From NCBI GenBank assembly GCA_965645245.1, contig OZ287087.1:496001-560000 (forward strand): a stretch of 64,000 bases of DNA. Direction: 5' to 3'. The notes under the pieces are model-generated. The model made no database searches and was not told the DNA's origin. It saw nothing but the letters and a program-made list of their open reading frames with translations. This document shows positions 7,529 to 58,145 of the stretch, one piece after another (position 1 is the stretch's first letter; every line of letters begins with the position of its first letter). A program made the position numbers and the translations under genes. This DNA is from Massalongia carnosa. Its lineage: Eukaryota.

Positions 7529-7641
7529 ACCGATGGTCCAATGGTGTAGAAGGAGGAGGACCGATGGTGTAGAAGGAGGAGGACCGATGGTGTAGAAGGA
7601 GGAGGATCGATTGTGTAGAAGGAGGAGGACCGATGGTGTAG
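7529..7641. repeat. 23-bp tandem repeat gaccgatggtgtagaaggaggag (~4 copies)
   Basis: Direct reading; retrocopy B is 5'-truncated within this repeat. Confidence 0.85.
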
Positions 7642-18396: not shown

Positions 18397-20278
18397 ATGC
18401 CACCTATTTCAGACCTTGTGCAGCTTTCAAAGCTCGAGACTCAATTCCACTCTGATCCGGAATATACGCAACACGTCCAGTACGTTTCTGGAAGTACGGC
18501 TAGACAAAGAAAAGTTTGCATGGAGGAAAAATGGATGAGAGAAAGGATGCTAGTTTCGGAATCGTCTGGTTAGAGCGGTGTATTCAAGGGAACAGTGAAG
18601 GGAAAGTACGAGCCGTAAAGAAGGTCCGAAAACTTGAGTCAAGCGATTATTACAGAGAATTGGAAGCTATTGCTCTGTTTTCTCACAGCAATGTAAGTCT
18701 ACTGCTGTGATTTTTTCACAATACACGTTTTCACACTTTAAGCTAACGTCAAGCTAGTACGAACGATGCTTTGTCAAGTCCTTCGGCTGGTATGATGATA
18801 GCGACAGCATATTCATTACTATGGAGTACCTTTCATATGGTGATTTGCACAAGTACCTCGGTTCACCGCTACCAGAGAAGGAAGGACAGCATATCGTTTT
18901 TCAGATTCTTGAAGGCTTACAATTCATGCATGATAAAGGGTTCGCTCACAGAGATTTAAAGCCAGCTGTAAGCCTAGCTACATGCATAAATAAATCAAAA
19001 ACATTACCTAATACTCCAAGTAATACAGAACATACTAGTTGTGTGCAAAGGCCCAGATTGGTGGGTCAAGATCGCAGACTTTGGAGTCAGCAAGCGGGCA
19101 ACAGAGGGACTTACAGCATTGAGAACCCAAAGAGGCACACCTGCTTTTACGGCACCAGAAGTACTCGGCTTGATTCAATCGAACGACGAATCAAATGATT
19201 CGTATACAAACGCTGTCGATATCTGGTCTCTAAGTGTTATCACATTCTTCATACTCACCGGCGAGATTCTTTTGAAAGACCTGCGCCGTCTAGGTCAGTA
19301 TGTTGCGGGCAACTTTAAATTTCCTTTGGATGTCTTGCTTGTAAACAAAGTAAGCGGACAGGGATGCGAATTCTTAAAAAGCTCAATGGCGTCAAAATCT
19401 GAGGATCGTCCAAGGGCTAATGAATGTTTACAACATTCGTGGTTGGATTTTCTTATAGAAGAGGCGGCTCCCGACACTCCAAGGTATTACTTCTTATAGA
19501 TGGAGACAGAAAATTATTATAATATCTTATAATAATAATATTGTAGTGTTGCTGATATCTTTGCAGAAAAATCAATGTTACAAAGCCAATGTCAACACCG
19601 CTGGACTGTTCAGATCCTGAGCCCTCTGCTAATTGGAGCATTCAAGACTCAATCTCGGCCTACGAGACGTATAGCTCTACGGGCGTGCTTACTAAAAAGA
19701 CTTTATCTACTTCCAAGGAAGCAGTAGCATCTTCAAAATCAGAACCAGCGACTCAAATCTATTGGCATATGGCAAGCATCCTCAAGGGTCATTCGGATTC
19801 TGTTCAGGCGGTGGCATTCTCGCCAGACGGGAAGCAGATCGCGTCTGCATCGTGGGACACGACGATTAGGCTCTGGGACTCGGCCACGGGGGCTTCGCGC
19901 AACATCCTCAAGGGTCATTCGGGTGGGATTCGTGCGGTGGCATTCTCGCCAGACGGGAAGCAGATCGCGTCTGCATCGAGCGACACGACGATCAGGCTCT
20001 GGGACTCGGCCACGGGGGCTTCGCGCAACATCGTCAAGGGTCATTCGGATTCTGTTCAGGCGGTGGCATTCTCGCCAGACGGGAAGCAGATCGCGTCCGC
20101 ATCGTGGGACACGACGATCAGGCTCTGGGACTCGGCCACGAGGGCTTCGCGCAACATCCTCAAGGGTCATTCGGATTCTGTTCAGGCGGTGGCATTCTCG
20201 CCAGACGGGAAGCAGATCGCGTCCGCAACGTGGGACATGACGATCAGGCTCTGGGACTCGGCCACATGGGCGGCGTAA
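18397..20278 (+). pseudogene. Kinase-WD40 gene copy 2, frameshifted; 4 WD repeats
   Basis: Same exon structure as copy 3. A 10-nt deletion (gaagtggcag) at 18553/18554 removes the GSGSFG loop and shifts the frame. Confidence 0.88.
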
Positions 20279-36167: not shown

Positions 36168-39100
36168 TGTCAACCTTTCACATGAATTCAGGAAGGATGA
36201 AAAAGGCTGTATTCTGTATGTGGGAAATGCCCACATCTAGCTACCTATATAGAAAGGAAAAGGGGTCATGGCAGCAACGATATCAACCCCGGCAAATTGA
36301 GGGGTAAAGGTGTGGAAGAAATGGCGTAGCTTAGCGGCATCTGCCGCGACAGGGGGTCGAGGATCGGCGATGAGAATCGACCACATTCAGGTTTGACACA
36401 CCCCCCCAGGATGCGAAGCATCCTGACCAAAAGAAGAAAACATGAAGCAATTCCCATTCGAGAAAAAGGTGCAATTCTTGCAAAATCAAAATGAGATGCC
36501 AGTGAAAAGAAATTTCTGCCCGCCGAGAGGAATTCCGCCCGGTTCACTCCCGCCTGCCCCATTCCTAAATCAGACACTTGATATCAATAAGGCCTAGCAT
36601 TTCCAGAAAGGAACGATGCTTTTGCGGAGGCAAGGGCTTGGTGAGACCATCTGCCGTCATCCGGTTGGTCTGTAGATAACCCACATTGAGATGACCAAAT
36701 TGAACGCTCTGTCTCAACCACAACTGAGCGATGTCTACATGCAGAAGTTTGGTGGTAACTTTGGGCTGTTCCGACGTCAGAATGCGGATGGTCTGCATGT
36801 TATCATTGTAGATTTTGACCGAATGGTCGTAGTCGAATCCCAGCTTGCCAAAGAAATTAATCCACCAGATGCATGCCTTGCCGGCATGGAGAAGGGCAAG
36901 CAATTCTGCCTCTGTCGTCGAAGTTGAGACGGTCGCCTGCTTCCTGGCAGCCCAGTCGATCATGCCGCCATATAGCTTGAATGTGAAACCCTCGTAGCTG
37001 CGTCGCTCGGGACTATTTGCAAAGCTGGCATCGGCAGTGTTTTCGAAGACATGCTTTGCCGAGAGCTGATCATCATCCGGAGACTGCACGGTAAGCTCGC
37101 CACCTCCCGAGGGTGAGTATTTTATCGCCAGATACTTAGTCGCGTGTAGATATTGCAGGCAGTGATTTGCCGCGTCTAGATGCTCCAGACCGGGACAGGT
37201 GAGATGCTCTGCCAATTTGGAGGCAGCTTTGGCAACGTCCGGCCGAGTGATATTCGCGGGATAGCAGATCGATCCTACCTTTTTACGATATTCCTGCCTC
37301 AGGGATTGGTCGACTGACCGAGGCGAGTCCGAGTCTGGGCTAGCTGCCGAGGCAGAGGTGAATGCGATGAAGTCTGACGGTAGCGGGGATGACGGAGATT
37401 TAGACGTGTCTATCTCGTATTCAATTGCCAACTTGTCCATGTAGGAGTCTTGACAAAGATAAATGTCGCCAGCATTTCGAACAATCCGTACACCGAGAAA
37501 GAAGCTCAATTGGCCCATGTCGCGTAATTCAAATCGAGCATTCAACTTCTGAATCAGCAGATCTACGTCTGCAGCTCTACTTTCCGGAAAGATGATGACT
37601 ATGTCATCCACATAGAAAAAGAGGATGATGCCAGAGTAGTCGGTAAAAAGGCAGGGCTCGCCAGGGATCTGCTGCATGTCCAATGAGGTGAGTGCTTTGG
37701 AAAATTCTCGTAGCCATAGTAGAGGCGATTTTCGAAGCCCGTACAAAGCCCGGACCAGGAGCAAGCATTTCCCCTCGATGACGAAACCATCTGGCATGTA
37801 CACGTGGATGACCCTATCGGCTTTGGCATTTAGGAAGGCATTGATCGCGTCAAACTGCCTTGTCCTGAGTCCGAAAGCAGACGTCAGGGCCATGAGGCAC
37901 CTGAAGATCTTAATTGCCAGCGTAGAGGCGTATACATCTTCCGCCGAGACTTCTTCCAAATCCCCTCGGACTACCAGGCGTGCCTTGTATTTTACTAGAA
38001 AGCCATCCGGGTCGAACTTGTATGTAAATACCCACATTAGTGGAAGCGGCTTCTGATTGGAAGTTTTGGGAATGACGACGAAGGTGTCCATTCTGAGAAG
38101 AGTCTGATATTCAAATTCGGCTGCTTTGCGAAATCCTTCTGCATGGGGATGTCGAAGCATACCTCGCCACTGCTTCGGCGGCGGCGGCAGGCTGTCCCTA
38201 TGCAATCTGGTCGACCTAGTAGTCACTGCAAATGCCAAATAAACTTCCTTCATCCCGTCATCCAATCCCGAGTTTGTATTCCCTAGTGGTTCCGAAGCGA
38301 TGCCGAGTGGTCTGATGCCGAGAGGTGCTGCGAGATTTGCGAATTTCTGCTTCGGTTTTCTGACTCGTTTTCCTTCGACGATATTGCTGACATCCAATTT
38401 GGCAGATCCGATATTCCTACTGGGACCGGTGCCAAAAGATTCGGCAATGCCGAGAGGCGTCCGGCCGGTTTCTGGCAGATCAGTCGGTAGATCTATGCTA
38501 CTCGGAAGACTGTCTTTTACCACCCGTTTGTCGCGAGATGTTGACGAAGAAGATGTAGGTGCAGGTGCTGAAGTCGATGGAGGCGGAGTGCTCTCGGGAG
38601 TCGGAAGATGCTGCTGACTCGGTGAATGTCTCGGCATGATAGGGACGTCTTTCGCAGTCAACGACGCGGGCACATCCAGTGCGGACGAATTTTCAACCGA
38701 CGAAGAAGGATCAGCAAATGACCGATTGCGCACAGATGTCGCCAGCCATTGCTCCTCATTTTCTGCCAAATCAACAATGTAGGGAGCAGCATCGAAAACT
38801 TCCAGCTCTACAAACTCGGCCACCTTCTCTTCGGGAATCAGATCCTTTTTGACGTATGTGGAGAAGGTTTGATCCTCATCAAAGATAACATCTCTATATC
38901 CGCTGACCGACCAGGTCTCGGGATTCCAGACTCGATAAATGTTTGTAGAATCGTATCCGACCAGATAGCCAACAAATGCTCGAGGAGCTAGTTTCTCACT
39001 TTTTGGCGGGGCATCTTTACCTTTCAGAAGGGGATATGCCTTGCACCCAAAGACCTTGAGATGACCAATTTCGGAATTGTATGGCTTCTTCAGGGCTCGG

Positions 39101-41996
39101 TGCAGGGAGATGTGAGGCGATTTCCAATCTAGTCCTTTTGTCGGCGTCCTATTTAGCAAGTGTCCAGCAGCGAGATAGCACTCGGGATACAGATCTTCTG
39201 GCAAATCGGCGCCGATGCGAATGCATCTAGCCTTCTGAGTCAAAAGGCTTCCTGCCCTCTCAGCCGACCCATTCTGCTCCTTAGTATGCTTTGCGGACCA
39301 TTCAAACGCGATTCCCTGTTCCTTGACGAAGTCCTGAATGACGTCTCCAACCGACGTTTCCTGATCCATTCGAAAGGTCTGAACGAAAAGACCGAATTCG
39401 GCTCCGAGTCGATCGCACCGATTTATGACATGCTTGACAATCCTAAGTAGTGTCTCCTGCTTATGATCTTGCAGGGGGAAGACCCAATGAAACGAGGTGA
39501 AATCATCCTGAAAATGAGCGACGCAGGTGGTCCCATCGAAAGCAGTCCTTTTCAAAATAATGAGGTCAAAATGAAGACGCTGGAATGGTTTAGTGGCTTT
39601 AGTAGCCGAGACCCTTGATACTAGTGTATGCATTTTTGACAATGCGCACGTCTCACATTTCACTGTCTTTGGAGCATCTTGACCACTGTTACCTCTTGAA
39701 ATCTCAATCATCTTCTGATTCGACAACTGGTTAATGACTTCCGGTTGGCAATGTCCTAGGCGGAGATGAAATTTCCATGGCGTGCCTTTTGGGATGGCAT
39801 CTGCCGAGACTCGGGAACCGACGAAATTTGCGAAAGCACCAGCGTGGCCAACGGGACGATACTCGGCAGTGTAGAGACCGAAATGCTCTTCCAATTCGAA
39901 GATTGAAATACCCTTCTTCTCGACCGTGTCCGTATGCATGTTCCACAGAAATCCATCCTTTTTCAGCTTGCTGACCGAAATCAAAGTCACCGATGAGTCG
40001 GGAACGTATGCTGTGTGTCGAAAATGCAGAGGCTGATTCTTCCCTTTTAGTGTCCCATTCACCAACATTGTCCCAAAACCTTCAATAAGGAGATCTCCGT
40101 CGGGAGTCGAGACCCACTCGTATGCCGGGATGATTTCGTCAATAAAACGGGATTTGTCCCAGGTCAGATGATTGGAGCATCCCGAGTCGTAGGAGACGCT
40201 GAGATGAAGCAGATTGTCGCGATCCGAGATAGTATTTCCAAAAGAGACTGGAGCATTCTCGACAACAGGGAGCTCGGCGGGAGCATTGCCATTGCCTCGG
40301 CCACGACCTCCATCTCCGCGACCCCCTCGACCTCCACCTCTTCCTCTTCCTCGAGGTTTCAAAGGTTCATCAGGCTCGGAGATGCCGTTGAGAATGTCGG
40401 ATGTAGCGGCGCGTTTGACATACCAATAAAGCTTGGAATTGGACCCGATTTTTTGTCGGATGTGGTCGCGTATCTCCTTATTGAATTTCCATCCCGAGAT
40501 TCTAGACTCGACTGTCAAATAAGGGCATCTTTTCCAGGAGTGAGTTTCGCCGCAAAGGCATTCGTTATTGCTGTACTTGCTATCGTCAGAAGTGGAATTT
40601 CCCCGATCGGAAGACTGTCCTTGTAGAGAAGCGGAATTCGCCGAGAGCTGCTGACGACGACCAGTGCTGATTGCATTTTCTTCTATCTCGGTCCGATACT
40701 CATTGGCGGCCTCGAAGAATTTAAGGGGACGACCTGATACATTTCGTATCTTGATCCAGGTGTCGCAAAAGAATGGTGCCCATATCCGAGCGGCTTTCAG
40801 AAAGTGCTGAGTGTAGATATACTCACTATAGATGGGTTCAACTTTCAAAGCAACGATTTCTTCCCTCAGCGTTTCCCATTGGCAGATCCAAGATTCGATC
40901 TTCCCTTTCACCGGGTGAGAATTTCTCAACTCGTCGTATTGGCGATCGATCTGCCTTTGAACTTCGTCCGGACTCTTTTTGAATTTATGGGCCAGGGACT
41001 GAAGAATTTCTCGAACCGAGGATGATCTGACATTCCTGGCGACATAATCTTTAGCCGACTCTAGGATGACCGTATGAACCTTCTCAATTCCCATGGCTGC
41101 GGCCCTGGCATCTGCCTGAAGCCCTCGATGTGACCGTTCATCTGCATTGTACGACTCCTTCTGTGATTCCGAGAGATCGGCATACCGAGAACATGGTTCG
41201 GGAATCAGGACCGGCGGGCCATTTAAATCGCCGAGAACTGTCCCTTGAGAAGAACCTTGAGAAGCGACAATAGCAGGCGTAGGGATATTGGTAGAGTCAG
41301 TGCCAGGCGTATTAACCGGGACGACTTTGACGTAATCACTGAATTTGGGAAATTTGGGAATGGTAGGTTCCGATTCTGATCCTTCCGGATCGACGTACTC
41401 CCATACCTGAGATCGTACTGCGATACCCTTGATTTCCGACAACCAGGAATTGTAGGTCCTAGGCGTCAGAGCCGAGACGATGAGTTTCCGAGACGATCCC
41501 GACGAGTAGTCTTCCATTTGGGATAACCGACCAAAGATGGAGACAGATGGGAAAAACAGGGAAACGACCAAAAAGGCAAAGGAAAATAGAAGCACGAGGA
41601 ATAAATCAACTCTGCGATGCTCCATGAGAGATACGATAATTCCGGCGGCGATACTCAGCCTGCCTAGGATATTTCGGGGTCGATGAAGGCAGCGATAAAT
41701 CAGCTTACCAATAACTAAAGTTAAGACGGAGGCAGCGAAAAACTCAGCTAACCCGGGCTCATAACTGTCAACCTTTCACATGAATTCAGGAAGGATGAAA
41801 AAGGCTGTATTCTGTATGTGGGAAATGCCCACATCTAGCTACCTATATAGAAAGGAAAAGGGGTCATGGCAGCAACGATATCAACCCCGGCAAATTGAGG
41901 GGTAAAGGTGTGGAAGAAATGGCGTAGCTTAGCGGCATCTGCCGCGACAGGGGGTCGAGGATCGGCGATGAGAATCGACCACATTCAGGTTTGACA
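36168..41996 (-). mobile_element. Full-length Copia element C1
   Basis: 231-bp LTRs 36168-36398 and 41766-41996; TSD ctgct; PBS-like gttatgagcccgg. Confidence 0.97.
36565..41625 (-). CDS. Copia C1 gag-pol polyprotein (intact)
   Basis: YDSGC protease, FHLRLGH, integrase core, YVDD RT, ADASF RNase H. Confidence 0.93.
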   Translation of the reverse strand: MEHRRVDLFLVLLFSFAFLVVSLFFPSVSIFGRLSQMEDYSSGSSRKLIVSALTPRTYNSWLSEIKGIAVRSQVWEYVDPEGSESEPTIPKFPKFSDYVKVVPVNTPGTDSTNIPTPAIVASQGSSQGTVLGDLNGPPVLIPEPCSRYADLSESQKESYNADERSHRGLQADARAAAMGIEKVHTVILESAKDYVARNVRSSSVREILQSLAHKFKKSPDEVQRQIDRQYDELRNSHPVKGKIESWICQWETLREEIVALKVEPIYSEYIYTQHFLKAARIWAPFFCDTWIKIRNVSGRPLKFFEAANEYRTEIEENAISTGRRQQLSANSASLQGQSSDRGNSTSDDSKYSNNECLCGETHSWKRCPYLTVESRISGWKFNKEIRDHIRQKIGSNSKLYWYVKRAATSDILNGISEPDEPLKPRGRGRGGGRGGRGDGGRGRGNGNAPAELPVVENAPVSFGNTISDRDNLLHLSVSYDSGCSNHLTWDKSRFIDEIIPAYEWVSTPDGDLLIEGFGTMLVNGTLKGKNQPLHFRHTAYVPDSSVTLISVSKLKKDGFLWNMHTDTVEKKGISIFELEEHFGLYTAEYRPVGHAGAFANFVGSRVSADAIPKGTPWKFHLRLGHCQPEVINQLSNQKMIEISRGNSGQDAPKTVKCETCALSKMHTLVSRVSATKATKPFQRLHFDLIILKRTAFDGTTCVAHFQDDFTSFHWVFPLQDHKQETLLRIVKHVINRCDRLGAEFGLFVQTFRMDQETSVGDVIQDFVKEQGIAFEWSAKHTKEQNGSAERAGSLLTQKARCIRIGADLPEDLYPECYLAAGHLLNRTPTKGLDWKSPHISLHRALKKPYNSEIGHLKVFGCKAYPLLKGKDAPPKSEKLAPRAFVGYLVGYDSTNIYRVWNPETWSVSGYRDVIFDEDQTFSTYVKKDLIPEEKVAEFVELEVFDAAPYIVDLAENEEQWLATSVRNRSFADPSSSVENSSALDVPASLTAKDVPIMPRHSPSQQHLPTPESTPPPSTSAPAPTSSSSTSRDKRVVKDSLPSSIDLPTDLPETGRTPLGIAESFGTGPSRNIGSAKLDVSNIVEGKRVRKPKQKFANLAAPLGIRPLGIASEPLGNTNSGLDDGMKEVYLAFAVTTRSTRLHRDSLPPPPKQWRGMLRHPHAEGFRKAAEFEYQTLLRMDTFVVIPKTSNQKPLPLMWVFTYKFDPDGFLVKYKARLVVRGDLEEVSAEDVYASTLAIKIFRCLMALTSAFGLRTRQFDAINAFLNAKADRVIHVYMPDGFVIEGKCLLLVRALYGLRKSPLLWLREFSKALTSLDMQQIPGEPCLFTDYSGIILFFYVDDIVIIFPESRAADVDLLIQKLNARFELRDMGQLSFFLGVRIVRNAGDIYLCQDSYMDKLAIEYEIDTSKSPSSPLPSDFIAFTSASAASPDSDSPRSVDQSLRQEYRKKVGSICYPANITRPDVAKAASKLAEHLTCPGLEHLDAANHCLQYLHATKYLAIKYSPSGGGELTVQSPDDDQLSAKHVFENTADASFANSPERRSYEGFTFKLYGGMIDWAARKQATVSTSTTEAELLALLHAGKACIWWINFFGKLGFDYDHSVKIYNDNMQTIRILTSEQPKVTTKLLHVDIAQLWLRQSVQFGHLNVGYLQTNRMTADGLTKPLPPQKHRSFLEMLGLIDIKCLI

Positions 41997-43702: not shown

Positions 43703-44331
43703 CTTCTTCCTCCTCTTTCTCCTTCTCTTCTACCTCTCCCCGCACAGCAAAGCCGTTTCCCTATCATCATCATCATCCACTACCTCAGGAACTTTGTCTA
43801 CCATTTAGCATCGAGCATAATCCTCCCCATGACGAGAAAGCAAACGTTATTCAAGTCGCTTCTCACGGCGGAACCACCCAGTATCTTTGTCATATAGGTC
43901 GGAAAGCCGGCTAAAACACACCTCGGCTCCCTTCAGCCCGTTCAGTAGACCTCATTCATCCCAAAGCTCAATGAAAGACTCGAGTGATGAAATGCTCAAG
44001 TACATCAAGACCTCCGTCGGGATTACGACAAGCGAGAAGGCAACTACGTTGATGAACATACAAGGACTCCTATTCGACGAAGACTGTCATTTTACTGTCA
44101 GACTTGGTCAAGTCTTGCGGGGGCTGGTAATGCACATTTTAGGTGTAGCTTCTTAAGGATTAAACTGATGAACGATGATTAACAGTACATCGCAGATCGA
44201 ACCTTTTCATAACACTGTCATCACACCGTCGTCACGCCGACAAGGATATTACGATCACATCAGAAATAAGAGTCGAATCAGAAACGCACCAAACCCGTAA
44301 TTCAGCGATCATGTTAAGCCATTGAACAACT

Positions 44332-45986
44332 TTATACTAGAATTTCGTTCAGCTTCATAAGTATCTAAAGACATTGTTAGCACGAGCTTTCCGTAAAAGC
44401 CGTATAATTGATAAACCTTGTCAATGTATTTCACACCCACTAAGACACCATCCTGGTCTTCGAACTCGCTCTGATCGCCAAAATCTGCATTGTCTTGATC
44501 TAGGCAAGTCAGACAGTTTATCACAACTTCCTCGTATCGCTCTCCCATCCGCTTGGATAGATCGCGTTTCGCAACAGCGATCAGGCGCTCTTTAATCAGA
44601 GCTGGCTGTTTGAGTTCGGGGCTGTTCAAAGTAATGCCGAGTGCTGCGGCAGGAAGAGGGGCTGTCACACCATCCGCATATGATACGAATGACTCCCACA
44701 ACCCAACCTCCAAAAGACAGACACCTAGGCTGTAGATGTCATGTTGCATGGTATAGATTTCCTCAGGGTTCAATCCCTGACGATGTGGGTGACGGTAGAG
44801 ATTCTTCTCCCAAGTAGAGTCACCTGACCGCCTTGTTCGACCATCTACTGTGCGCATCTTCTCGAAACCGACAAGGAAGAACAAGCCAAACTCAGATTCA
44901 TTAGTTTGGAAGCCAAGAACAGTCTCGGGCCGGACGTTCTTGTGCACAAAGCCAAGTGTATGGACATAGCTGATAGACTTGGCCAGTTGTTTTGCAAGCT
45001 GGAAACGGTCTGTAAGTGTATGATCGAAATATGAGGAGAGATAACTCCGAAGACTTCTAGGCTCGTTGCTGAGCTCTCTGGGTATTCGGAATATGAAATC
45101 AAAAGAGGATGATCTCCCGCTGCTGGGTTCCATAACTCGAACTACACCGCGGCACTGAAGTATGCCGAATGTAAGAGGGTCCACAGAAGAGAGTTTTCTT
45201 GCAAGCTCCCTTACATCTCTTGTCATCAAGCCTATGTCGACTTCCGGATCGCATGGGATGCGGTCTACCACGAACCATTTGTCCGAGCCAGCTCTCTGCA
45301 TACACTTCGCAGATGCGAAAGGAATCTCGCGCATCCCCGCCGTCTCAAGTCCATCTTTTGGAAGGAAAACGGAGACTTTCTGAAGAGGCTGCTCCCTCAG
45401 AGCGTCTCTAAGGCTATGCGTGCCGGTGAACGAAGATATCGCCGACCCATTTCTGCTCAGCTCCTGATCAATCAAGGGACTTGAGACCTTCAGGATTAAA
45501 AACCAAGATGGATCGAACAACTTCTGCCATGAGGTCAAATCCTCAATAGATTCATCAAGACATTTTTTAATCAGGACATATTTCAATTTATTTACTTCTA
45601 TAACCCAGCCATTTGTTGCTTGATTATCGGATCTCCTTTCGGACAGTTTAACAAGTTTAGAGGTTATGAGGCTTAATTTGTTGATTAGTACCTGGTAAAT
45701 CTGATCCTGAATTGATTGATGTTCCTCGTCCAGGCCGTTCCATATCCGCTTGATAAAGTCTAGTTGTAAGTCTGTGCGTTTCCAGTGATTTTCTACGCAG
45801 AGTACTCGCTCATTTATCTCGGCCTCTGCGCCCTTGAAGGTTGCGCATGTCTCGACAAGAATCTTACCATATCTGGATTGTGTCAGATGGCAGTGCAACA
45901 GAGAGAGAATGGAGACGAGCAACTCACTTGATACATAGGTCGGCTGTTGCAAAAACAGCAAACGTTATCCCGACTACTTCTGCCAT
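44332..45986 (-). CDS. HeLo-like domain + pseudokinase (MLKL-like) protein, ~515 aa
   Basis: Exons 45986-45928, 45872-44417, 44364-44332 (GT..AG, in frame). Hydrophobic N-terminal helix MAEVVGITFAVFATADLCIKYGK and a helical domain, then a kinase fold with VHKNVRPET, LVGFE, LYRHP, DIYSLGVCLLE. HeLo assignment is by family recognition, not by a search. Confidence 0.85.
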
Positions 45987-46541
45987 GAGTCACGACAGTG
46001 TACTTGGATCCTGGACACAAAAAAAGCGGTAAATGATGGGGAAGAGAGACGTCGTTGTATTCCATTAGGCGGAACACTCGATAGAGGCGGTGTCTGCTCT
46101 AGCTAGATAGGGTAAAGCTTGAGCTTGGGGATGTGATGGCGGGGCTGAATCCTAAGGCAGAAGGCATAAGGCTAGATTTCGTTTTCCGTAGCCATCATGA
46201 GAACGAGCTTATACCTACCTATATCATAAAGGGGTGTTTGAGAGGTCTCCTTCACGCTCTGCCAGTCAGAATAACCGGACCCTGTCATCTCCGTTGAATC
46301 CGGCGCCTCTGACGACGACCCCGTCGCTGATGCGGAGCAGTGCTCAGGCTTCGGGATGTAGGTCAGGCATAGTTCACATACTACACTATGGTACATGAAT
46401 GACCGACCATCTTTTGCGCGTTGTGATTGTAAGCTGTGATCGGTGACTGCCGGTATCCTACGATTTGCGCGTGAGTTCGAGCTGATGATCTACAGACCAA
46501 GCGCCTCCTGTCCGCACAAGAGCAGATGTCAGATCGCTACC
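45987..46541. promoter_or_regulatory. Putative bidirectional promoter region
   Basis: 555 bp between divergent ATGs; no TE recognised in it. Confidence 0.55.
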
Positions 46542-48811
46542 ATGCCACCTATTTCAGACCTTGTGCAGGTTTCAAAGGTCGAGACTCAATTCCACTCTGA
46601 TCCGGAATATACGCAACACGTCCAGTACGTATCTAGAAGTACGGCAAGACAAAGAAAAGTTCGCATGGAGGAAAAATGGATGAGAGAAAGGATGCTAGGA
46701 AGTGGCAGTTTCGGAATCGTCTGGTTAGAGCGGTGTATTCAAGGGAACAGTGAAGGGAAAGTACGAGCTGTAAAGAAGGTCCGAAAACTTGAGTCCAGCG
46801 ATTATTACAGAGAATTGGAAGCTATTTCTCTGTTTTCTCACAGCAATGTAAGTCTACTGCTGTTATTTTTTCACAACCTACTTTTCCACACCTTACGCTA
46901 ACGTCAAGCTAGTATGAACGATGCTTTGTTAAGTCCTTCGGCTGGTATGATGATAGTGACAGCATATTTATTACTATGGAGTATCTTTCATATGGTGATT
47001 TGCATAAGTACCTCGGTTCACCGCTACCAGAGAAGGAAGGACAGCATATCGTTTTTCAGATCCTCGAAGGCTTACAATTCATGCATGATAAAGGGTTCGC
47101 TCACAGAGATTTAAAGCCAGCTGTAAGCCTAGCTACATGCATCAATATAATCAGAAAATTAGCTAATACTCTAAGTAATACAGAACATACTAGTTGTGGA
47201 CAAAGGCCCAGAGTGGTGGGTCAAGATCGCAGACTTTGGAGTCAGCAAGCGGGCAACAGAGGGACTTACAGCATTAAGAACCCAAAGAGGCACACCTGCT
47301 TTTACGGCACCAGAAGTACTTGGCTTTATTCAATTGAACGACGAATCAAATGATTCGTATACAAACGCTGTTGATATCTGGTCTCTGAGTGTTATCACAT
47401 TCTTCATACTCACCGGCGAGATTCTTTTCAAAGACCCGCGCCGTCTAGGTCAGTATGTTGCGGGCAACTTTAAATTTCCTTTGAATGTCTTGCTTGTAAA
47501 CAAAGTAAGCGGACAGGGATGCGACTTCTTAAAAAGCTCAATGGCGTCAAAGTCTGAGGATCGTCCAAGGGCTAATGAATGTTTACAACATTCGTGGTTG
47601 GATTTTCTTATAGAAGACGCGGCTCCTGACACTCCAAGGTATTAATTCTTATAGATGGAGACAGAAAATTATTATGATATCTTATAACAATAATGTTGTT
47701 GTGTTGCTGATATCTTTGCAGAAAAATCAATGTTACAAAGCCAATGTCAACACCGCTGGACTGTTCAGATCCTGAGCCCTCTGCTAGTTGGAGCACTCAA
47801 GACTCAATTTCGGCCTACGAGACGCATAGCTCTACGGGCGTGCTTACTAAAAAGACATTGTCTACTTCTAAGGAAGCAGTCGCACCTTCAAAATCAGAAC
47901 CAGCGACTCAAATCTATTGGCATATGGCAAGCATCCTCAAGGGTCATTCGGGTTCTGTTGGGGCGGTGGCGTTCTCGCCAGACGGGAAGCAGATCGCGTC
48001 CGCATCGTGGGACACGACGATCAGGCTCTGGGACTCGGCCACGGGGGCTTCGCGCAACATCCTCGAGGGTCATTCGGATTCTGTTTTCGCGGTGGCGTTC
48101 TCGCCAGACGGGAAGCAGATCGCGTCCGCATCGTCGGACACGACGATCAGGCTCTGGGACTCGGCCACGGGGGCTTCGCGCAACATCCTCGAGGGTCATT
48201 CGGATTCTGTTTTCGCGGTGGCGTTCTCGCCAGACGGGAAGCAGATCGCGTCCGCATCGTCGGACACGACGATCAGGCTCTGGGACTCGGCCCCGGAGGA
48301 TTCGCGCAACATCCTCAAGGGTCATTCGGGTGTGGTTTGGGCGGTGGCGTTCTCGCCAGACGGGAAGCAGATCGCGTCCGCATCGTGGGACACGACGATC
48401 AGGCTCTGGGACTCGGCCACGGGGGCTTCGCGCAACATCCTCAAGGGTCATTCGGGTGTGGTTTACGCGGTAGCGTTCTCGCCAGACGGGAAGCAGATCG
48501 CGTCCGCATCGTCGGACACGACGATCAGGCTCTGGGACTCGGCCACGGGGGCTTCGTGCAACATCCTCAAGGGTCATTCGGGTGTGGTTGGGGCGGTGGC
48601 GTTCTCACCAGACGGGAAGCAGATCGCGTCCGCATCGTGGGACACGACGATCAGGCTCTGGGACTCGGCCACGGGGGCTTCGCGCAACATCCTCGAGGGT
48701 CATTGGGATTCTGTTGACGCGGTGGCGTTCTCGCCAGACGGGAAGCAGATCGCGTCCGCATCGTCGGACACGACGATCAGGCTCTGGGACTCGGCTACAT
48801 GGGCGGCGTAA
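46542..48811 (+). CDS. Ser/Thr kinase-WD40 (7 high-conservation repeats) fusion, copy 3, intact, ~686 aa
   Basis: Exons 46542-46847, 46913-47122, 47184-47638, 47722-48811 splice in frame. GSGSFG, AVKK, HRDLKPAN, DFG, APE all present. Confidence 0.92.
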
Positions 48812-49723
48812 TATGGTTTTCCAGTACCTAGAAAAGTTTTTCACATAGAAAATTATTACAACCTCCTTCCCCACCCACCTCCATCGCCACCCACCTCCAT
48901 CGCCCTTTAGGTCCTTATATACCATTTTTTTAATCATTGGATTATTAATTCCTGCTTCAAAGAATGTCGCTCTACTTTGATTTCTAAGCTACTTCGAAAC
49001 TCTTGTCCTGGAATGTACTTTGCTTTGAAATCCTAAGTCACGGCGTATAACGACCTCGCGGTTAAATAAGCTTTACCATTAAGTTAACCGACCTATTAGC
49101 CTTGTAGGACGAATAGGCACGAATCTGTAGTGAGAAACTTCAGTGCGTATTCTACTACGTGTACGATAGAGGCACATTAATCAGAAAATGACAGCATAAA
49201 CGCAAACAGAAAAAAGTAACCTTTCCAAAAACGCAGAACAAAGAACGTAGCTTCAGGCGACGTCACTACATCACAAACCAAATCCTGTTCCGCTGCCATC
49301 AAAACGAGACGAATGCAAATCTGCGGCGGACGGTAAATACCAAACCGCCATAACGAAATTCTTGAGTTTCGAATCGCGACATTGCGACGAAAAAACAACG
49401 TACATTTATAATTCCACGCTTTCTTCTCTTCCCATTTCTTCCTCTCTATTATATAAAGTTAGTATAGTTCAATGATGGGACTTCGTACGATCTGAAACAT
49501 ACTCTTCAACCTTGTCTGATATGCTTAAAGTGTCAACCTGCGCTGCCGCTAACTCTCGAGACAACTGAACATCAGGGTTGTCTTCTACAGAAGACAACGA
49601 GACGGTTGTCTCAATTGTACGACGCTCTGACGCAGACGCAGACGACGAAAGAGGGAGTGCCACATGAGAGAACTGTTGCGTTAAGGGAGGAATAGGTCTG
49701 ACGATCGCGTACACTCCGTCTAT

Positions 49724-52313: not shown

Positions 52314-55300
52314 TGTCAACCTTTCACATGAATTCAGGAAGGATGAAAAAGGCTGTATTCTGTATGTGGGAAATGCCCACATCTAGCTACCTATATAGAA
52401 GGGAAAAGGGGTCATGGCAGCAACGATATTAACCCCGGCAAATTGAGGGGTAAAGGTGTGGAAGAAATGGCGTAGCTTAGCGGCATCTGCCGCGACAGGG
52501 GGTCGAGGATCGGCGATGAGAATCGACCACATTCAGGTTTGACACACCCCCCCAGGATGCGAAGCATCCTGACCAAAAGAAGAAAACATGAAGCAATTCC
52601 CATTCGAGAAAAAGGTGCAATTCTTGCAAAATCAAAATGAGATGCCAGTGAAAAGAAATTTCTGCCCGCCGAGAGGAATTCCGCCCGGTTCACTCCCGCC
52701 TGCCCCATTCCTAAATCAGACACTTGATATCAATAAGGCCTAGCATTTCCAGAAAGGAACGATGCTTTTGCGGAGGCAAGGGCTTGGTGAGACCATCTGC
52801 CGTCATCCGGTTGGTCTGTAGATAACCCACATTGAGATGACCAAATTGAACGCTCTGTCTCAACCACAACTGAGCGATGTCTACATGCAGAAGTTTGGTG
52901 GTAACTTTGGGCTGTTCCGACGTCAGAATGCGGATGGTCTGCATGTTATCATTGTAGATTTTGACCGAATGGTCGTAGTCGAATCCCAGCTTGCCAAAGA
53001 AATTAATCCACCAGATGCATGCCTTGCCGGCATGGAGAAGGGCAAGCAATTCTGCCTCTGTCGTCGAAGTTGAGACGGTCGCCTGCTTCCTGGCAGCCCA
53101 GTCGATCATGCCGCCATACAGCTTGAATGTGAAACCCTCGTAGCTGCGTCGCTCGGGACTATTTGCAAAGCTGGCATCGGCAGTGTTTTCGAAGACATGC
53201 TTTGCCGAGAGCTGATCATCATCCGGTGACTGCACGGTAAGCTCGCCACCTCCCGAGGGTGAGTATTTTATCGCCAGATACTTAGTCGTGTGTAGATATT
53301 GCAGGCAGTGATTTGCCGCGTCTATATGCTCCGGACCGGGACAAGTGAGATGCTCTGCCAATTTGGAGGCAGCTTTGGCAACGTCCGGCCGAGTGATATT
53401 CGCGGGATAGCAGATCGATCCTACCTTTTTACGATACTCCTGCCTCAGGGATTGGTCGACTGACCGAGGCGAGTCCGAGTCTGGGCTAGCTGCCGAGGCA
53501 GAGGTGAATGCGATGAAGTCTGACGGTAGCGGGGATGATGGAGATTTAGACGTGTCTATCTCGTATTCAATTGCCAACTTGTCCATGTAGGAGTCTTGAC
53601 AAAGATAAATGTCGCCAGCATTTCGAACAATCCGTACACCGAGAAAGAAGCTCAATTGGCCCATGTCGCGTAATTCAAATCGAGCATTCAACTTCTGAAT
53701 CAGCAGATCTACGTCTGCAGCTCTACTTTCCGGAAAGATGATGACTATGTCATCCACATAGAAAAAGAGGATGATGCCAGAGTAGTCGGTAAAAAGGCAG
53801 GGCTCGCCAGGGATCTGCTGCATGTCCAATGAGGTGAGTGCTTTGGAAAATTCTCGTAGCCATAGTAGAGGCGATTTTCGAAGCCCGTACAAAGCCCGGA
53901 CCAGGAGCAAGCATTTCCCCTCGATGACGAAACCATCTGGCATATACACGTGGATGACCCTATCGGCTTTGGCATTTAGGAAGGCATTGATCGCGTCAAA
54001 CTGCCTTGTCCTGAGTCCGAAAGCAGACGTCAGGGCCATGAGGCACCTGAAGATCTTAATTGCCAGCGTAGAGGCGTATACATCTTCTGCCGAGACTTCT
54101 TCCAAATCCCCTCGGACTACCAGGCGTGCCTTGTATTTTACTAGAAAGCCATCCGGGTCGAACTTGTATGTAAATACCCACATTAGTGGAAGCGGCTTCT
54201 GATTGGAAGTTTTGGGAATGACGACGAAGGTGTCCATTCTGAGAAGAGTCTGATATTCAAATTCGGCTGCTTTGCGAAATCCTTCTGCATGGGGATGTCG
54301 AAGCATACCTCGCCACTGCTTCGGCGGCGGCGGCAGGCTGTCCCTATGCAATCTGGTCGACCTAGTGGTCACTGCAAATGCCAAATAAACTTCCTTCATC
54401 CCGTCATCCAATCCCGAGTTTGTATTCCCTAGTGGTTCCGAAGCGATGCCGAGTGGTCTGATGCCGAGAGGTGCTGCGAGATTTGCGAATTTCTGCTTCG
54501 GTTTTCTGACTCGTTTTCCTTCGACGATATTGCTGACATCCAATTTGGCAGATCCGATATTCCTACTGGGACCGGTGCCAAAAGATTCGGCAATGCCGAG
54601 AGGCGTCCGGCCGGTTTCTGGCAGATCAGTCGGTAGATCTATGCTACTCGGAAGACTGTCTTTTACCACCCGTTTGTCGCGAGATGTTGACGAAGAAGAT
54701 GTAGGTGCAGGTGCTGAAGTCGATGGAGGCGGAGTGCTCTCGGGAGTCGGAAGATGCTGCTGACTCGGTGAATGTCTCGGCATGATAGGGACGTCTTTCG
54801 CAGTCAACGACGCGGGCACATCCAGTGCGGACGAATTTTCAACCGACGAAGAAGGATCAGCAAATGACCGATTGCGCACAGATGTCGCCAGCCATTGCTC
54901 CTCATTTTCTGCCAAATCAACAATGTAGGGAGCAGCATCGAAAACTTCCAGCTCTACAAACTCGGCCACCTTCTCTTCGGGAATCAGATCCTTTTTGACG
55001 TATGTGGAGAAGGTTTGATCCTCATCAAAGATAACATCTCTATATCCGCTGACCGACCAGGTCTCGGGATTCCAGACTCGATAAATGTTTGTAGAATCGT
55101 ATCCGACCAGATAGCCAACAAATGCTCGAGGAGCTAGTTTCTCACTTTTTGGCGGGGCATCTTTACCTTTCAGAAGGGGATATGCCTTGCACCCAAAGAC
55201 CTTGAGATGACCAATTTCGGAATTGTATGGCTTCTTCAGGGCTCGGTGCAGGGAGATGTGAGGCGATTTCCAATCTAGTCCTTTTGTCGGCGTCCTATTT

Positions 55301-58145
55301 AGCAAGTGTCCAGCAGCGAGATAGCACTCGGGATACAGATCTTCTGGCAAATCGGCGCCGATGCGAATGCATCTAGCCTTCTGAGTCAAAAGGCTTCCTG
55401 CCCTCTCAGCCGACCCATTCTGCTCCTTAGTATGCTTTGCGGACCATTCAAACGCGATTCCCTGTTCCTTGACGAAGTCTTGAATGACGTCTCCAACCGA
55501 CGTTTCCTGATCCATTCGAAAGGTCTGAACGAAAAGACCGAATTCGGCTCCGAGTCGATCGCACCGATTTATGACATGCTTGACAATCCGAAGTAGTGTC
55601 TCCTGCTTATGATCTTGCAGGGGGAAGACCCAATGAAACGAGGTGAAATCATCCTGAAAATGAGCGACGCAGGTGGTCCCATCGAAAGCAGTCCTTTTCA
55701 AAATAATGAGGTCAAAATGAAGACGCTGGAATGGTTTAGTGGCTTTAGTAGCCGAGACCCTTGATACTAGTGTATGCATTTTTGACAATGCGCACGTCTC
55801 ACATTTCACTGTCTTTGGAGCATCTTGACCACTGTTACCTCTTGAAATCTCAATCATCTTCTGATTCGACAACTGGTTAATGACTTCCGGTTGGCAATGT
55901 CCTAGGCGGAGATGAAATTTCCATGGCGTGCCTTTTGGGATTGCATCTGCCGAGACTCGGGAACCGACGAAATTTGCGAAAGCACCAGCGTGGCCAACGG
56001 GACGATACTCGGCAGTGTAGAGACCGAAATGCTCTTCCAATTCGAAGATTGAAATACCCTTCTTCTCGACCGTGTCCGTATGCATGTTCCACAGAAATCC
56101 ATCCTTTTTCAGCTTGCTGACCGAAATCAAAGTCACCGATGAGTCGGGAACGTATGCTGTGTGTCGAAAATGCAGAGGCTGATTCTTCCCTTTTAGTGTC
56201 CCATTCACCAACATTGTCCCAAAACCTTCAATAAAGAGATCTCCGTCGGGAGTCGAGACCCATTCGTATGCCGGGATGATTTCGTCAATAAACCGGGATT
56301 TGTCCCAGGTCAGATGATTGGAGCATCCCGAGTCGTAGGAGACGCTGAGATGAAGCAGATTGTCGCGATCCGAGATAGTATTTCCAAAAGAGACTGGAGC
56401 ATTCTCGACAACAGGGAGCTCGGCGGGAGCATTGCCATTGCCTCGGCCACGACCTCCATCTCCGCGACCCCCTCGACCTCCACCTCTTCCTCGATATCGA
56501 GGTTTCAAAGGTTCATCAGGCTCGGAGATGCCGTTGAGAATGTCGGATGTAGCGGCGCGTTTGACATACCAATAAAGCTTGGAATTGGACCCGATTTTTT
56601 GTCGGATGTGGTCGCGTATCTCCTTATTGAATTTCCATCCCGAGATTCTAGACTCGACTGTCAAATAAGGGCATCTTTTCCAGGAGTGAGTTTCGCCGCA
56701 AAGGCATTCGCTATTGCCGTACTTGCTATCGTCAGAAGTGGAATTTCCCTGATCGGAAGAAGACTGTCCTTGCAGAGAAGCGGAATTCGCCGAGAGCTGC
56801 TGACGACGACCAGTGCTGATTGCATTTTCTTCTATCTCGGTCCGATACTCATTGGCGGCCTCGAAGAATTTAAGGGGACGACCTGATACATTTCGTATCT
56901 TGATCCAGGTGTCGCAAAAGAATGGTGCCCATATCCGAGCGGCTTTCAGAAAGTGCTGAGTGTAGATATACTCACTATAGATGGGTTCAACTTTCAAAGC
57001 AACGATTTCTTCCCTCAGCGTTTCCCATTGGCAGATCCAAGATTCGATCTTCCCTTTCACCGGGTGAGAATTTCTCAACTCGTCGTATTGGCGATCGATC
57101 TGCCTTTGAACTTCGTCCGGACTCTTTTTGAACTTATGGGCCAGGGACTGAAGAATTTCTCGAACCGAGGATGATCTGACATTCCTGGCGACATAATCTT
57201 TAGCCGACTCTAGGATGACCGTATGAACCTTCTCAATTCCCATGGCTGCGGCCCTGGCATCTGCCTGAAGCCCTCGATGTGACCGTTCATCTGCATTGTA
57301 CGACTCCTTCTGTGATTCCGAGAGATCGGCATACCGAGAACATGGTTCGGGAATCAGGACCGGCGGACCATTTAAATCGCCGAGAACTGTCCCTTGAGAA
57401 GAACCTTGAGAAGCGACAATAGCAGGCGTAGGGGTATTGGTAGAGTCAGTGCCAGGCGTATTTGCCGAGACGACTTTGACGTAATCACTGTATTTGGGAA
57501 ATTTGGGAATGGTAGGTTCCGACTCTGATCCTTCCGGATCGACGTACTCCCATACCTGAGATCGTACCGCGATACCCTTGATTTCCGACAACCAGGAATT
57601 GTAGGTCCTAGGCGTCAGAGCCGAGACGATGAGTTTCCGAGACGATCCCGACGAGTAGTCTTCCATTTGGGATAACCGACCAAAGATGGAGACAGATGGG
57701 AAAAACAGGGAAACGACCAAAAAGGCAAAGGAAAATAGAAGCACGAGGAATAAATCAACTCTGCGATGCTCCATGAGAGATACGATAATTCCGGCGGCGA
57801 TACTCAGCCTGCCTAGGATATTTCGGGGTCGATGAAGGCAGCGATAAATCAGCTTACCAATAACTAAAGTTAAGACGGAGGCAGCGAAAAATTCAGCTAA
57901 CCCGGGCTCATAACTGTCAACCTTTCACATGAATTCAGGAAGGATGAAAAAGGCTGTATTCTGTATGTGGGAAATGCCCACATCTAGCTACCTATATAGA
58001 AGGGAAAAGGGGTCATGGCAGCAACGATATTAACCCCGGCAAATTGAGGGGTAAAGGTGTGGAAGAAATGGCGTAGCTTAGCGGCATCTGCCGCGACAGG
58101 GGGTCGAGGAGCGGCGATGAGAATCGACCACATTCAGGTTTGACA
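52314..58145 (-). mobile_element. Full-length Copia element C2
   Basis: 231-bp LTRs 52314-52544 and 57915-58145; TSD ataag. Confidence 0.97.
52711..57774 (-). CDS. Copia C2 gag-pol polyprotein (intact)
   Basis: Near-identical to the C1 ORF. Confidence 0.93.
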   Translation of the reverse strand: MEHRRVDLFLVLLFSFAFLVVSLFFPSVSIFGRLSQMEDYSSGSSRKLIVSALTPRTYNSWLSEIKGIAVRSQVWEYVDPEGSESEPTIPKFPKYSDYVKVVSANTPGTDSTNTPTPAIVASQGSSQGTVLGDLNGPPVLIPEPCSRYADLSESQKESYNADERSHRGLQADARAAAMGIEKVHTVILESAKDYVARNVRSSSVREILQSLAHKFKKSPDEVQRQIDRQYDELRNSHPVKGKIESWICQWETLREEIVALKVEPIYSEYIYTQHFLKAARIWAPFFCDTWIKIRNVSGRPLKFFEAANEYRTEIEENAISTGRRQQLSANSASLQGQSSSDQGNSTSDDSKYGNSECLCGETHSWKRCPYLTVESRISGWKFNKEIRDHIRQKIGSNSKLYWYVKRAATSDILNGISEPDEPLKPRYRGRGGGRGGRGDGGRGRGNGNAPAELPVVENAPVSFGNTISDRDNLLHLSVSYDSGCSNHLTWDKSRFIDEIIPAYEWVSTPDGDLFIEGFGTMLVNGTLKGKNQPLHFRHTAYVPDSSVTLISVSKLKKDGFLWNMHTDTVEKKGISIFELEEHFGLYTAEYRPVGHAGAFANFVGSRVSADAIPKGTPWKFHLRLGHCQPEVINQLSNQKMIEISRGNSGQDAPKTVKCETCALSKMHTLVSRVSATKATKPFQRLHFDLIILKRTAFDGTTCVAHFQDDFTSFHWVFPLQDHKQETLLRIVKHVINRCDRLGAEFGLFVQTFRMDQETSVGDVIQDFVKEQGIAFEWSAKHTKEQNGSAERAGSLLTQKARCIRIGADLPEDLYPECYLAAGHLLNRTPTKGLDWKSPHISLHRALKKPYNSEIGHLKVFGCKAYPLLKGKDAPPKSEKLAPRAFVGYLVGYDSTNIYRVWNPETWSVSGYRDVIFDEDQTFSTYVKKDLIPEEKVAEFVELEVFDAAPYIVDLAENEEQWLATSVRNRSFADPSSSVENSSALDVPASLTAKDVPIMPRHSPSQQHLPTPESTPPPSTSAPAPTSSSSTSRDKRVVKDSLPSSIDLPTDLPETGRTPLGIAESFGTGPSRNIGSAKLDVSNIVEGKRVRKPKQKFANLAAPLGIRPLGIASEPLGNTNSGLDDGMKEVYLAFAVTTRSTRLHRDSLPPPPKQWRGMLRHPHAEGFRKAAEFEYQTLLRMDTFVVIPKTSNQKPLPLMWVFTYKFDPDGFLVKYKARLVVRGDLEEVSAEDVYASTLAIKIFRCLMALTSAFGLRTRQFDAINAFLNAKADRVIHVYMPDGFVIEGKCLLLVRALYGLRKSPLLWLREFSKALTSLDMQQIPGEPCLFTDYSGIILFFYVDDIVIIFPESRAADVDLLIQKLNARFELRDMGQLSFFLGVRIVRNAGDIYLCQDSYMDKLAIEYEIDTSKSPSSPLPSDFIAFTSASAASPDSDSPRSVDQSLRQEYRKKVGSICYPANITRPDVAKAASKLAEHLTCPGPEHIDAANHCLQYLHTTKYLAIKYSPSGGGELTVQSPDDDQLSAKHVFENTADASFANSPERRSYEGFTFKLYGGMIDWAARKQATVSTSTTEAELLALLHAGKACIWWINFFGKLGFDYDHSVKIYNDNMQTIRILTSEQPKVTTKLLHVDIAQLWLRQSVQFGHLNVGYLQTNRMTADGLTKPLPPQKHRSFLEMLGLIDIKCLI

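Follow-up and report, generated by a model that had tools for sequence, protein, structure and literature searches.

A conserved gene pair of filamentous ascomycetes sets a WD40-fused kinase beside a pseudokinase of MLKL-like architecture, a candidate necroptosis-type module

A 64,000-nucleotide stretch of the Massalongia carnosa genome (assembly GCA_965645245.1, contig OZ287087.1, positions 496,001 to 560,000 of the forward strand; hereafter the window) contains two divergently transcribed genes, gene A and gene B, that form a conserved two-gene module of filamentous ascomycetes. Gene B encodes a predicted active kinase fused to a WD40 array, and gene A encodes a pseudokinase preceded by a helical N-terminal domain (N-domain). 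Functional coupling of the two genes is very probable, and gene B may be a sensor-kinase that activates gene A as an executioner. The known fungal counterparts of necroptosis fire HeLo-type executioners via NOD-like receptors (NLRs) and amyloid templating; we know of no description of a fungal equivalent of the RIPK3-to-MLKL kinase step, which defines animal necroptosis. The features of the pair, numbered from the first letter of the window, are as follows.

44332-45986, minus strand: gene A, from sequence reading with scripted splicing and translation; exons 45986-45928, 45872-44417 and 44364-44332; 515 residues.
45377-45986, minus strand: gene A N-domain, residues 1-185; hydrophobic first helix (residues 1-19), predicted bundle of four long helices and three short helices.
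44417-45376, minus strand: gene A pseudokinase domain, residues 186-505, with a TK/TKL-like kinase fold.
44936-44944, minus strand: HKN replacing HRD, so that the catalytic-loop Asp is lost; motif located by script.
44861-44869, minus strand: GFE replacing DFG; motif located by script.
44834-44836, minus strand: Thr366 of the activation segment, candidate phospho-acceptor in a family column that is always hydroxyl.
45987-46541, no strand: divergent spacer of 555 bp, presumed shared promoter region.
46542-48811, plus strand: gene B (copy B1); exons 46542-46847, 46913-47122, 47184-47638 and 47722-48811; 686 residues.
47768-47803, plus strand: linker motif DPEPSASW(S/T)TQD(Q), between kinase and propeller.
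47933-48808, plus strand: WD40 array of seven 42-residue units with high internal conservation.

A reading of the window from sequence alone (the sequence-only reading) had proposed two intact spliced genes diverging from a 555-bp spacer, and both of its gene models proved correct to the base. Gene A starts with the ATG at 45986, ends with the TAA at 44334-44332 and is interrupted by introns of 55 nt (45927-45873) and 52 nt (44416-44365); those of gene B measure 65, 61 and 83 nt, and all five are bounded by GT..AG. The termini of the gene A protein, M..AGLAL..DLCFKYGK at the N terminus and ..KYIEKILxKLxEIxV at the C terminus, are the same in the eukaryotic gene models P0004, P0014 and P0065, and this agreement of the N-terminal exon product and the last ten residues confirms both introns. 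Homologues of gene A are numerous (1090 at E<=0.001 among the candidates scored). The best come from lichen-forming fungi (Psora, Toensbergia, Xylographa, Endocarpon and Pseudocyphellaria), within which identity is 75-85%, and others from Leotiomycetes and Dothideomycetes; mean column identity is 55%.

The pairing of the two genes, the main refutable prediction of the sequence-only reading, is conserved. A single scan of metagenome contigs gave 80 loci, and L001-L011 fit gene A better than an ordinary kinase; L012-L080 were rejected as gene A relatives, an active-kinase query outscoring gene A at the same place in 69/69. For three of the retained relatives (L003, L008 and L011) the contigs are too short for neighbours to be assessed. 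At 39-45% identity, all three assessable close loci (L001, L002 and L004) carry a kinase+WD40 gene directly upstream on the opposite strand, and the head-to-head spacers there are ~0.4-0.7 kb long; the 555-bp spacer of Massalongia is a probable shared promoter of both genes. Translated comparison found no flank similarity between the window and L001, L002 or L004, nor between L001 and L004, so only the pair has been kept. A word-based search with the kinase C-lobe exon of gene B (151-residue query) returned 34 proteins. Five species are named both there and among the gene A homologues, and four of them encode the two genes on consecutive locus tags of the same contig.

Endocarpon pusillum: GJ744_006316/006315, consecutive tags, same contig.
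Psora testacea: Q9217_000674/675, consecutive tags, same contig.
Brigantiaea leucoxantha: Q9190_001109/1108, consecutive tags, same contig.
Ciborinia camelliae: NHQ30_002476/2475, consecutive tags, same contig.

For 11 other named gene A homologues no partner from the same species was listed, which says little because the word-based 151-residue search is weak.

Gene A has lost the catalytic residues of a kinase, and so has its family. The protein contains no GxGxxG, HRD or APE by motif search, and the HKN and GFE that the sequence-only reading had pointed out in place of HRD and DFG were both located. Across a 51-sequence alignment spanning the family, from which all column counts are taken, the DFG-Asp column is Gly in 51/51 and Asp is absent from the HRD-Asp column in 48/51 (N 36, S 6, D 3, G 3, A 2, T 1), while the catalytic-loop Asn column is mostly Thr or Ser. 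The members are true pseudokinases, family-wide. One activation-segment column is invariably hydroxyl: that of Thr366 is Thr in 43 and Ser in 8 of the 51 sequences, and its neighbours vary freely. Profile alignment to BRAF places Thr366 between the DFG and APE equivalents, and the activation segment is disordered in the model of P0004, an 81% identical homologue (predicted local distance difference test (pLDDT) <50 at residues 363-371). This always-Ser/Thr residue suggests that gene A is itself a substrate.

The kinase fold of gene A is of TK/TKL type. Pfam gives a weak Pkinase match only (E 6.5e-4, below cutoff), and comparison of the gene A profile with Protein Data Bank (PDB) sequences reaches BRAF at E 9e-7, with BRAF, DCLK1, LIMK1 and CK1 among the best 60 of 216 matches. 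By VIA-align Z, the pseudokinase domain model resembles MerTK (Z 20.3, root-mean-square deviation (rmsd) 3.5, 260 residues aligned), BRAF (Z 19.6), JAK2 and RIPK2/4. The full-length AlphaFold2 model of P0004 (pLDDT 66) consists of four long helices, short connecting helices and a kinase fold, and the best Foldseek E-value of a full-length gene A homologue model is that of mouse MLKL (4BTF), over 530 columns. Modelling thus supports for gene A the architecture of MLKL, namely a helical bundle, short helices and a kinase fold.

Gene B, to judge from its motifs and closest relatives, is a catalytically complete Ser/Thr kinase of CAMK-like type. Its motifs (GSGSFG, AVKK, HRDLKPAN, DFG and APE) are complete, and Pfam finds Pkinase on exon 2 (E 2e-14) and exon 3 (E 9e-22) together with seven WD40 stretches (E 5e-89). 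Motifs, Pfam and a period-126 repeat agree with the sequence-only reading here, which had described all catalytic motifs fused to seven near-identical WD40 repeats. The solved kinases closest to the C-lobe exon are STK17A/B, that is DRAK1/2 (E 4e-14 and 4e-12), and CHK2 (E 2e-11); no RIPK occurs among its nine solved-structure matches at E<=1e-10. Only Pkinase and WD40-type families were found on the four exons of gene B, and neither NACHT nor NB-ARC was found there or on gene A, in keeping with the proposal of the sequence-only reading that the module needs no NACHT. Gene B and the L001 kinase have introns at the same places, after ..SH(S/P)N and ..HRDLKPA.

The linker motif between kinase and propeller is kept in the orthologues P0130, P0127, P0122, P0125, P0121 and P0132, from lichen fungi to Ciborinia and Meristemomyces. 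It is repeated in P0140, P0133 and P0121, occurring two or three times in Psora testacea, Ciborinia and Lobaria. The motif holds a TQ site, and the kinase that it adjoins is CHK2-like. One of these orthologues, P0132 (Meristemomyces frigidus LTR08_001378), has a gene model that opens with a HET-domain-like PF06985 and lacks the kinase N-lobe. In this model a neighbouring HET gene has probably been fused on by error; a HET gene would then adjoin the pair.

The WD40 array combines near-identity of its units with variation at few positions. Tandem Repeats Finder reports, for 47927-48795, a period of 126 with 6.9 copies, 94% matches and a score of 1484, and the seven units have a mean pairwise nucleotide identity of 92%. 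Compared with the unit consensus, they show 25 nonsynonymous and 5 synonymous codon differences. We then pooled 23 complete units from three paralogues in the window, gene B and two further copies described below. Positions 7, 8, 10 and 26 (4/42) hold 56/84 nonsynonymous but only 2/23 synonymous differences, and unit entropy is 1.6-2.6 bits at these positions and <=0.5 bits at 34/42. The differences are therefore concentrated as the claim of a hypervariable WD40 array had implied. These four positions presumably correspond to the published positively selected sites of HNWD/NWD repeats. Such a pattern is expected of a diversifying ligand-binding surface on a scaffold homogenised by repeat exchange. 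Near-identical repeats recur in L004, Endocarpon, Letrouitia and Lobaria (P0130, P0125 and P0121); those of L001, L002 and Ciborinia are ordinary divergent WD repeats.

The N-domain of gene A begins with a hydrophobic helix, as the sequence-only reading had described: no 19-residue window of the protein is more hydrophobic than residues 1-19 (Kyte-Doolittle 1.78), and homologue comparison shows this segment conserved as a small-residue-rich helix. When residues 1-185 of P0004 were modelled alone, AlphaFold2 (pLDDT 76) gave four helices of ~30 residues each, at 2-32, 39-68, 71-100 and 108-139, and after them three short helices within 143-179. The nearest named ESM Atlas cluster is PF14479 HeLo (0.94, 181/256 features), followed by PF17111 and SesA, and 7/10 best clusters share the HeLo family or clan. 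An N-domain profile matched 644 of 1.84 billion representatives at E<=0.001, and the 150 of these that were listed include no other architecture, all being members of the ~500-residue family or fragments of it. Likewise, a search for shorter homologues of the N-domain returned 13 fragments of the gene A family only, none of them HeLo-annotated. The models thus describe a predicted four-helix bundle (4HB) compatible with HeLo/4HB, for which kinship to that group is suggestive.

A bona fide HeLo domain does occur in a more distant relative of gene A. The L006 protein carries PF14479 HeLo (E 2e-25), then PF24476 DUF7580 (E 3e-10) and a weak kinase match, and a kinase gene with ankyrin (ANK) repeats lies downstream of it. 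In L005 a DUF7580 protein stands head-to-head with a kinase+ANK gene, and in L009 and L010 (98% identical, one lineage) a DUF7580-type protein stands head-to-head with a kinase gene bearing tetratricopeptide repeats (TPR). HeLo matches in L005, L007 and L008 are sub-threshold (E 4-7e-4). A kinase+repeat neighbour is thus present in 7/8 assessable loci (6/7 lineages), and kinase relatives with ANK (P0141, P0149 and P0152) or TPR (P0153) also appeared in the C-lobe exon search. The same pseudokinase type is paired with kinases bearing WD40, ANK and TPR arrays; the neighbourhood survey for kinase-WD/TPR/ANK genes, which the sequence-only reading had put forward as a check, yielded WD40 in close and ANK or TPR in distant relatives. 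WD40, ANK and TPR are the three repeat classes of fungal NLRs. They are also, according to passages of PMC8851545, repeat classes in the protease-repeat partners of fungal gasdermins.

DUF7580 connects these loci with the gene A family. The gene A protein has no match to it at E<=0.01, close members reach <=26.5 bits (gathering score 27) with weak matches in 5/29, and L005-L008 pass at 31.9-40.8 bits. The two groups are related, because L005-L008 match the pseudokinase part of gene A at 28-33% identity. The Pfam HeLo match of L006 begins at profile position 18 and coincides there with the first residues of the open frame (2204, plus strand). This parallels gene A, in which the first 20 residues lie on a separate small exon (45928-45986, minus strand); the two genes may have a common intron position after the N-terminal helix.

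Gene A is single-copy in the window, and gene B is present in three copies (B1, B2 and B3).

1-3150, plus strand: copy B2 of gene B; exon 1 cut by the window start, end approximate.
18397-20278, plus strand: copy B3 of gene B, a pseudogene; from alignment and translation, end approximate.

Copy B2 is 96% identical in nucleotides to 46808-48805 and has intact exons 2 and 3, with a frame change near 3038. It contains 14 complete WD units (14 Pfam WD40 stretches) in two blocks with a duplicated linker piece between them. Copy B3 (92.7% identity, 18032-20271 against 46135-48426) is a pseudogene because the loss of 10 bp from the glycine-loop codons in exon 1 has put it out of frame; four WD units are left, and similarity extends ~400 bp into the spacer without a copy of gene A. 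The claim that the pair is the only intact host gene pair in the window had overlooked both copies. In the Massalongia carnosa genome, one executioner may serve several fast-diversifying sensor paralogues.

The rest of the window is transposon sequence, in which Pfam finds gypsy-type and copia-type retroelements, DDE and MULE transposases and reverse transcriptase. The pair is placed between two copia-type open reading frames (ORFs) of 1736 and 1737 residues (36568-41775 and 52714-57924, both minus strand). Their Pfam scores are the same for 2/3 domains, and they resemble recent copies of a single element. Contigs from two studies (four public runs) span the pair (44200-48900) and show no joints at the predicted introns. 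Since these introns are crossed unspliced, the contigs look like DNA and are uninformative on expression. They differ from the pair at many single bases, some pieces being 8% divergent, and represent alleles or paralogues. Coverage of the WD units is many times deeper than elsewhere, so those samples contain many similar repeats.

Neighbours of the pair were also seen in two of the close loci. In L004 an NLR-type gene (5575-7893, minus strand; DUF676 serine-esterase-like N-domain with NPHP3_N/NACHT) lies ~1.5 kb downstream of the gene A homologue and gives the pair an immune-type neighbourhood in another fungus. In L001 the pair is followed, 1 kb downstream, by an ORF beginning MAEPFSIAAAASSLAALG.. 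(12529-12963, plus strand), whose hydrophobic N-terminus of small residues resembles those of HeLo-type proteins and which has no Pfam match at E<=0.001.

We propose the following model for the pair. Gene B would act as a sensor-kinase whose C-terminal WD40 propeller exposes a few hypervariable surface positions. Binding of a ligand or a modified self protein to the propeller would relieve autoinhibition of the kinase, which would then phosphorylate the always-Ser/Thr activation-segment residue of gene A (Thr366). The pseudokinase would change conformation and release the helical bundle, which would oligomerise and attack a membrane, leading to regulated cell death or an immune-type response. 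That a sensor-kinase activates an executioner of MLKL architecture through activation-segment phosphorylation is a proposal whose chances we judge to be evenly balanced. Ligand sensing, the kinase-substrate relation, membrane attack and cell death are steps that we infer, and the cell-death output, for which we draw on analogy and on the HeLo-bearing relatives, is plausible. Wider still, and a proposal toward which we lean only tentatively, filamentous ascomycetes may possess a widespread NLR-independent, phosphorylation-driven pathway of necroptosis type, in which kinase+WD40/ANK/TPR sensors stand beside bundle-pseudokinase executioners that join a HeLo or divergent four-helix head to a pseudokinase of DUF7580 type. 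If this is true, the logic of a kinase firing an MLKL-like killer is either older than the animal-fungal split or arose twice.

A number of results weigh against the model proposed for the pair, the first of them concerning the N-domain. Pfam finds nothing in the first 190 residues of gene A, and its HeLo-type families (PF14479, PF17111 and PF17107) match 0/29 family members at E<=1 and 0/73 family representatives at E<=0.01; nor do they match the N-domains of L001, L002 and L004 at E<=1. Alignment of the N-domain profile with the L006 HeLo domain alone (hhalign) gave nothing; against four HeLo-type N-domains it gave a probability of only 17% (E 0.0015, 34 columns), in a match that aligns the last long helix of the N-domain with theirs. 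Searches of the N-domain profile against PDB sequences returned chance-level rows only, with no MLKL or HET-S match at E<=10, and Foldseek found no solved structure at E<0.1. The wide structural search covered 48,161 representative chains, of which the best 50 rows were considered. Its best rows are designed bundles (up to Z 12), above all natural matches, and the HET-S HeLo domain is absent from the 50, although a family missing from such a list is not thereby excluded. Four natural bundles do lie within the best 37/48,161 chains, namely the NRG1.1 CC-R domain (Z 8.9), the human MLKL N-terminal domain 6UX8 (VIA-align Z 8.0, rmsd 3.2, 114 residues, rank 30), the coiled-coil (CC) domain of MLA13 (Z 7.8) and AtMLKL3 6KA4 (Z 7.6, 135 aligned), at Z values (7.6-8.9) in a range common to generic helical bundles and under the level of specificity. 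Of the HeLo/4HB fold that the sequence-only reading had proposed, the modelled four-helix bundle stands, but no Pfam HeLo match accompanies it and the structural matches are generic.

Further points of this kind concern the two kinase domains and the pairing itself. Because the gene B kinase is CAMK-like by sequence, it is not a RIPK3 homologue. MLKL is absent from the best 60 of the 216 PDB sequence-profile matches of gene A, and it is not among the 50 best structures by Z for the pseudokinase domain. A specific structural affinity of that domain for MLKL was thus rejected, 4BTF ranking first by Foldseek E-value and falling outside the 50 best by VIA Z; since MLKL lies outside these 50, the likeness is one of architecture and not of a specially close kinase domain. 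The RIPK3-MLKL analogue put forward by the sequence-only reading holds for MLKL architecture and pseudokinase, but the partner kinase is not a RIPK3 relative. The kinase relative listed for Pseudocyphellaria aurata, whose Pfam list has no WD40, lies on a different contig from the gene A homologue, and the DUF7580 protein of L007 has no kinase within its 5.1-kb contig. Finally, the strong conservation of gene A fits an executioner and fits a housekeeping regulator equally.

Some of the same evidence bears on other explanations. Gene A could be an allosteric partner that binds the gene B kinase and tunes, scaffolds or localises it, a role that pseudokinase partners have for some active kinases. 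The output would then run through other substrates without membrane attack, and the helical N-domain would do no more than localise or oligomerise the protein. Conserved pairing and a probable shared promoter would fit any obligate partnership, and so would the high conservation of gene A and an N-domain that is not recognisably HeLo and whose fold matches are generic bundles. We nevertheless consider this explanation unlikely: the first helix is conserved and more hydrophobic than any other segment of the protein, the same pseudokinase type has in distant relatives a bona fide HeLo death domain in the corresponding place, and the always-Ser/Thr residue suggests that gene A serves as a substrate.

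The propeller might instead monitor gene A and not an outside ligand, in a guard/decoy or het-type allorecognition system with the pseudokinase as a bait mimicking effector-targeted kinases or as a polymorphic partner. Near-identical WD repeats with hypervariable positions are a hallmark of HNWD/NWD allorecognition receptors, and the WD units described here show that pattern. Paralogous sensor copies with different repeat sets occur within the same transposon-rich 48 kb, and a SesB-like/NACHT-type NLR adjoins the pair in L004. Gene A, however, is conserved and not polymorphic across species (75-85% within lichen fungi), and orthologous pairs in L001, L002 and Ciborinia have divergent WD repeats, which leaves such a system decidedly improbable in our view. 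That adjacency is only the inherited synteny of two unrelated genes, with no functional coupling, is already disfavoured and can be given very little credence. Related genomes do share gene order, and the close examples may share one ancestral arrangement; yet the pair is kept at 39-45% protein identity between flanks that share nothing, and it recurs in independent lineages with three repeat classes (WD40, ANK and TPR) and two orientations.

The proposed activation of gene A by a sensor-kinase has its closest animal parallel in RIPK3-MLKL. Common to both, to judge from the gene A models and motifs, are a four-helix bundle, connector helices, a GFE pseudokinase with a conserved activation-segment Ser/Thr, and an active kinase as the proposed upstream activator, given the MLKL mechanism as described in part of PMC12881547. 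The fungal system differs in having a CAMK-like gene B kinase that is joined to the WD40 receptor in one protein, and in having its two genes side by side. Gene A, moreover, shows no detected MLKL sequence homology among its best 60/216 PDB matches, and its pseudokinase is no closer to MLKL than to other TK/TKL kinases. The plant MLKLs (AtMLKL1-3 and Pm13) likewise carry bundle and pseudokinase in one polypeptide, and the portions consulted of bioRxiv 10.1101/681015 and PMC10951266 describe them as HeLo-type bundles with a pseudokinase and an immune role. A dedicated adjacent sensor-kinase is not described for the plant proteins in those portions, and the structural match of AtMLKL3 to the N-domain stays in the generic-bundle range.

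Among fungal systems, HET-S/NWD2 and HELLP/PNT1 are two-gene clusters in which a repeat-array sensor neighbours a membrane-targeting executioner, a helical bundle whose N-terminal helix is hydrophobic, as sections of PMC12881547 and PMC10197012 set out. The present pair has the same layout, a repeat-array sensor adjoining a helical-bundle protein with such a helix, but no NACHT or NB-ARC is found by Pfam in either gene, the proposed signal is phosphorylation of a pseudokinase, and the N-domain of gene A has no Pfam HeLo match. In the HNWD/NWD proteins (HET-E/D/R) the repeats are similarly 42-residue units varying at few positions, with ~92% nucleotide identity here; in gene B they are attached to a protein kinase and not to a NACHT NTPase with a HET domain. 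Part of the 2025 review PMC12881547 notes that some HELL domains sit on kinase or pseudokinase proteins, reminiscent of MLKL, and calls for broader exploration of HeLo/4HB proteins in fungi; that part describes neither a partner sensor-kinase nor a conserved gene pair. Our literature search, which covered sources other than subscription journals and preprint supplements, found no description of the gene pair, in line with the sequence-only reading that no characterised example was known, and no mention of DUF7580 / PF24476.

A matching logic is found in the fungal gasdermin clusters of HET-Q1/HET-Q2 type, in which a repeat-fused enzyme is encoded next to the executioner. For HET-Q1 gasdermin, passages of PMC8851545 describe an enzyme fused to TPR/ANK/WD40 arrays, encoded beside the pore-former that it activates and often without an NLR nucleotide-binding domain. 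For gasdermin and protease genes, such neighbourhood is reported at 80%. Here the enzyme is a kinase instead of an S8 or CHAT protease, the proposed executioner is a bundle-pseudokinase instead of a gasdermin, and the proposed activation is reversible phosphorylation instead of cleavage. If the proposed mechanism is true, it extends to kinases the rule seen in fungal gasdermins, a repeat-fused enzyme beside its pore-forming substrate, and Pfam DUF7580 gains a function. The gene pair is a concrete testable system in which candidate phosphosite, catalytic lysine (Lys78), sensor and N-domain are separable. By analogy with these known systems, the locus would represent a kinase-to-pseudokinase logic of necroptosis type, built with a fungal sensor architecture.

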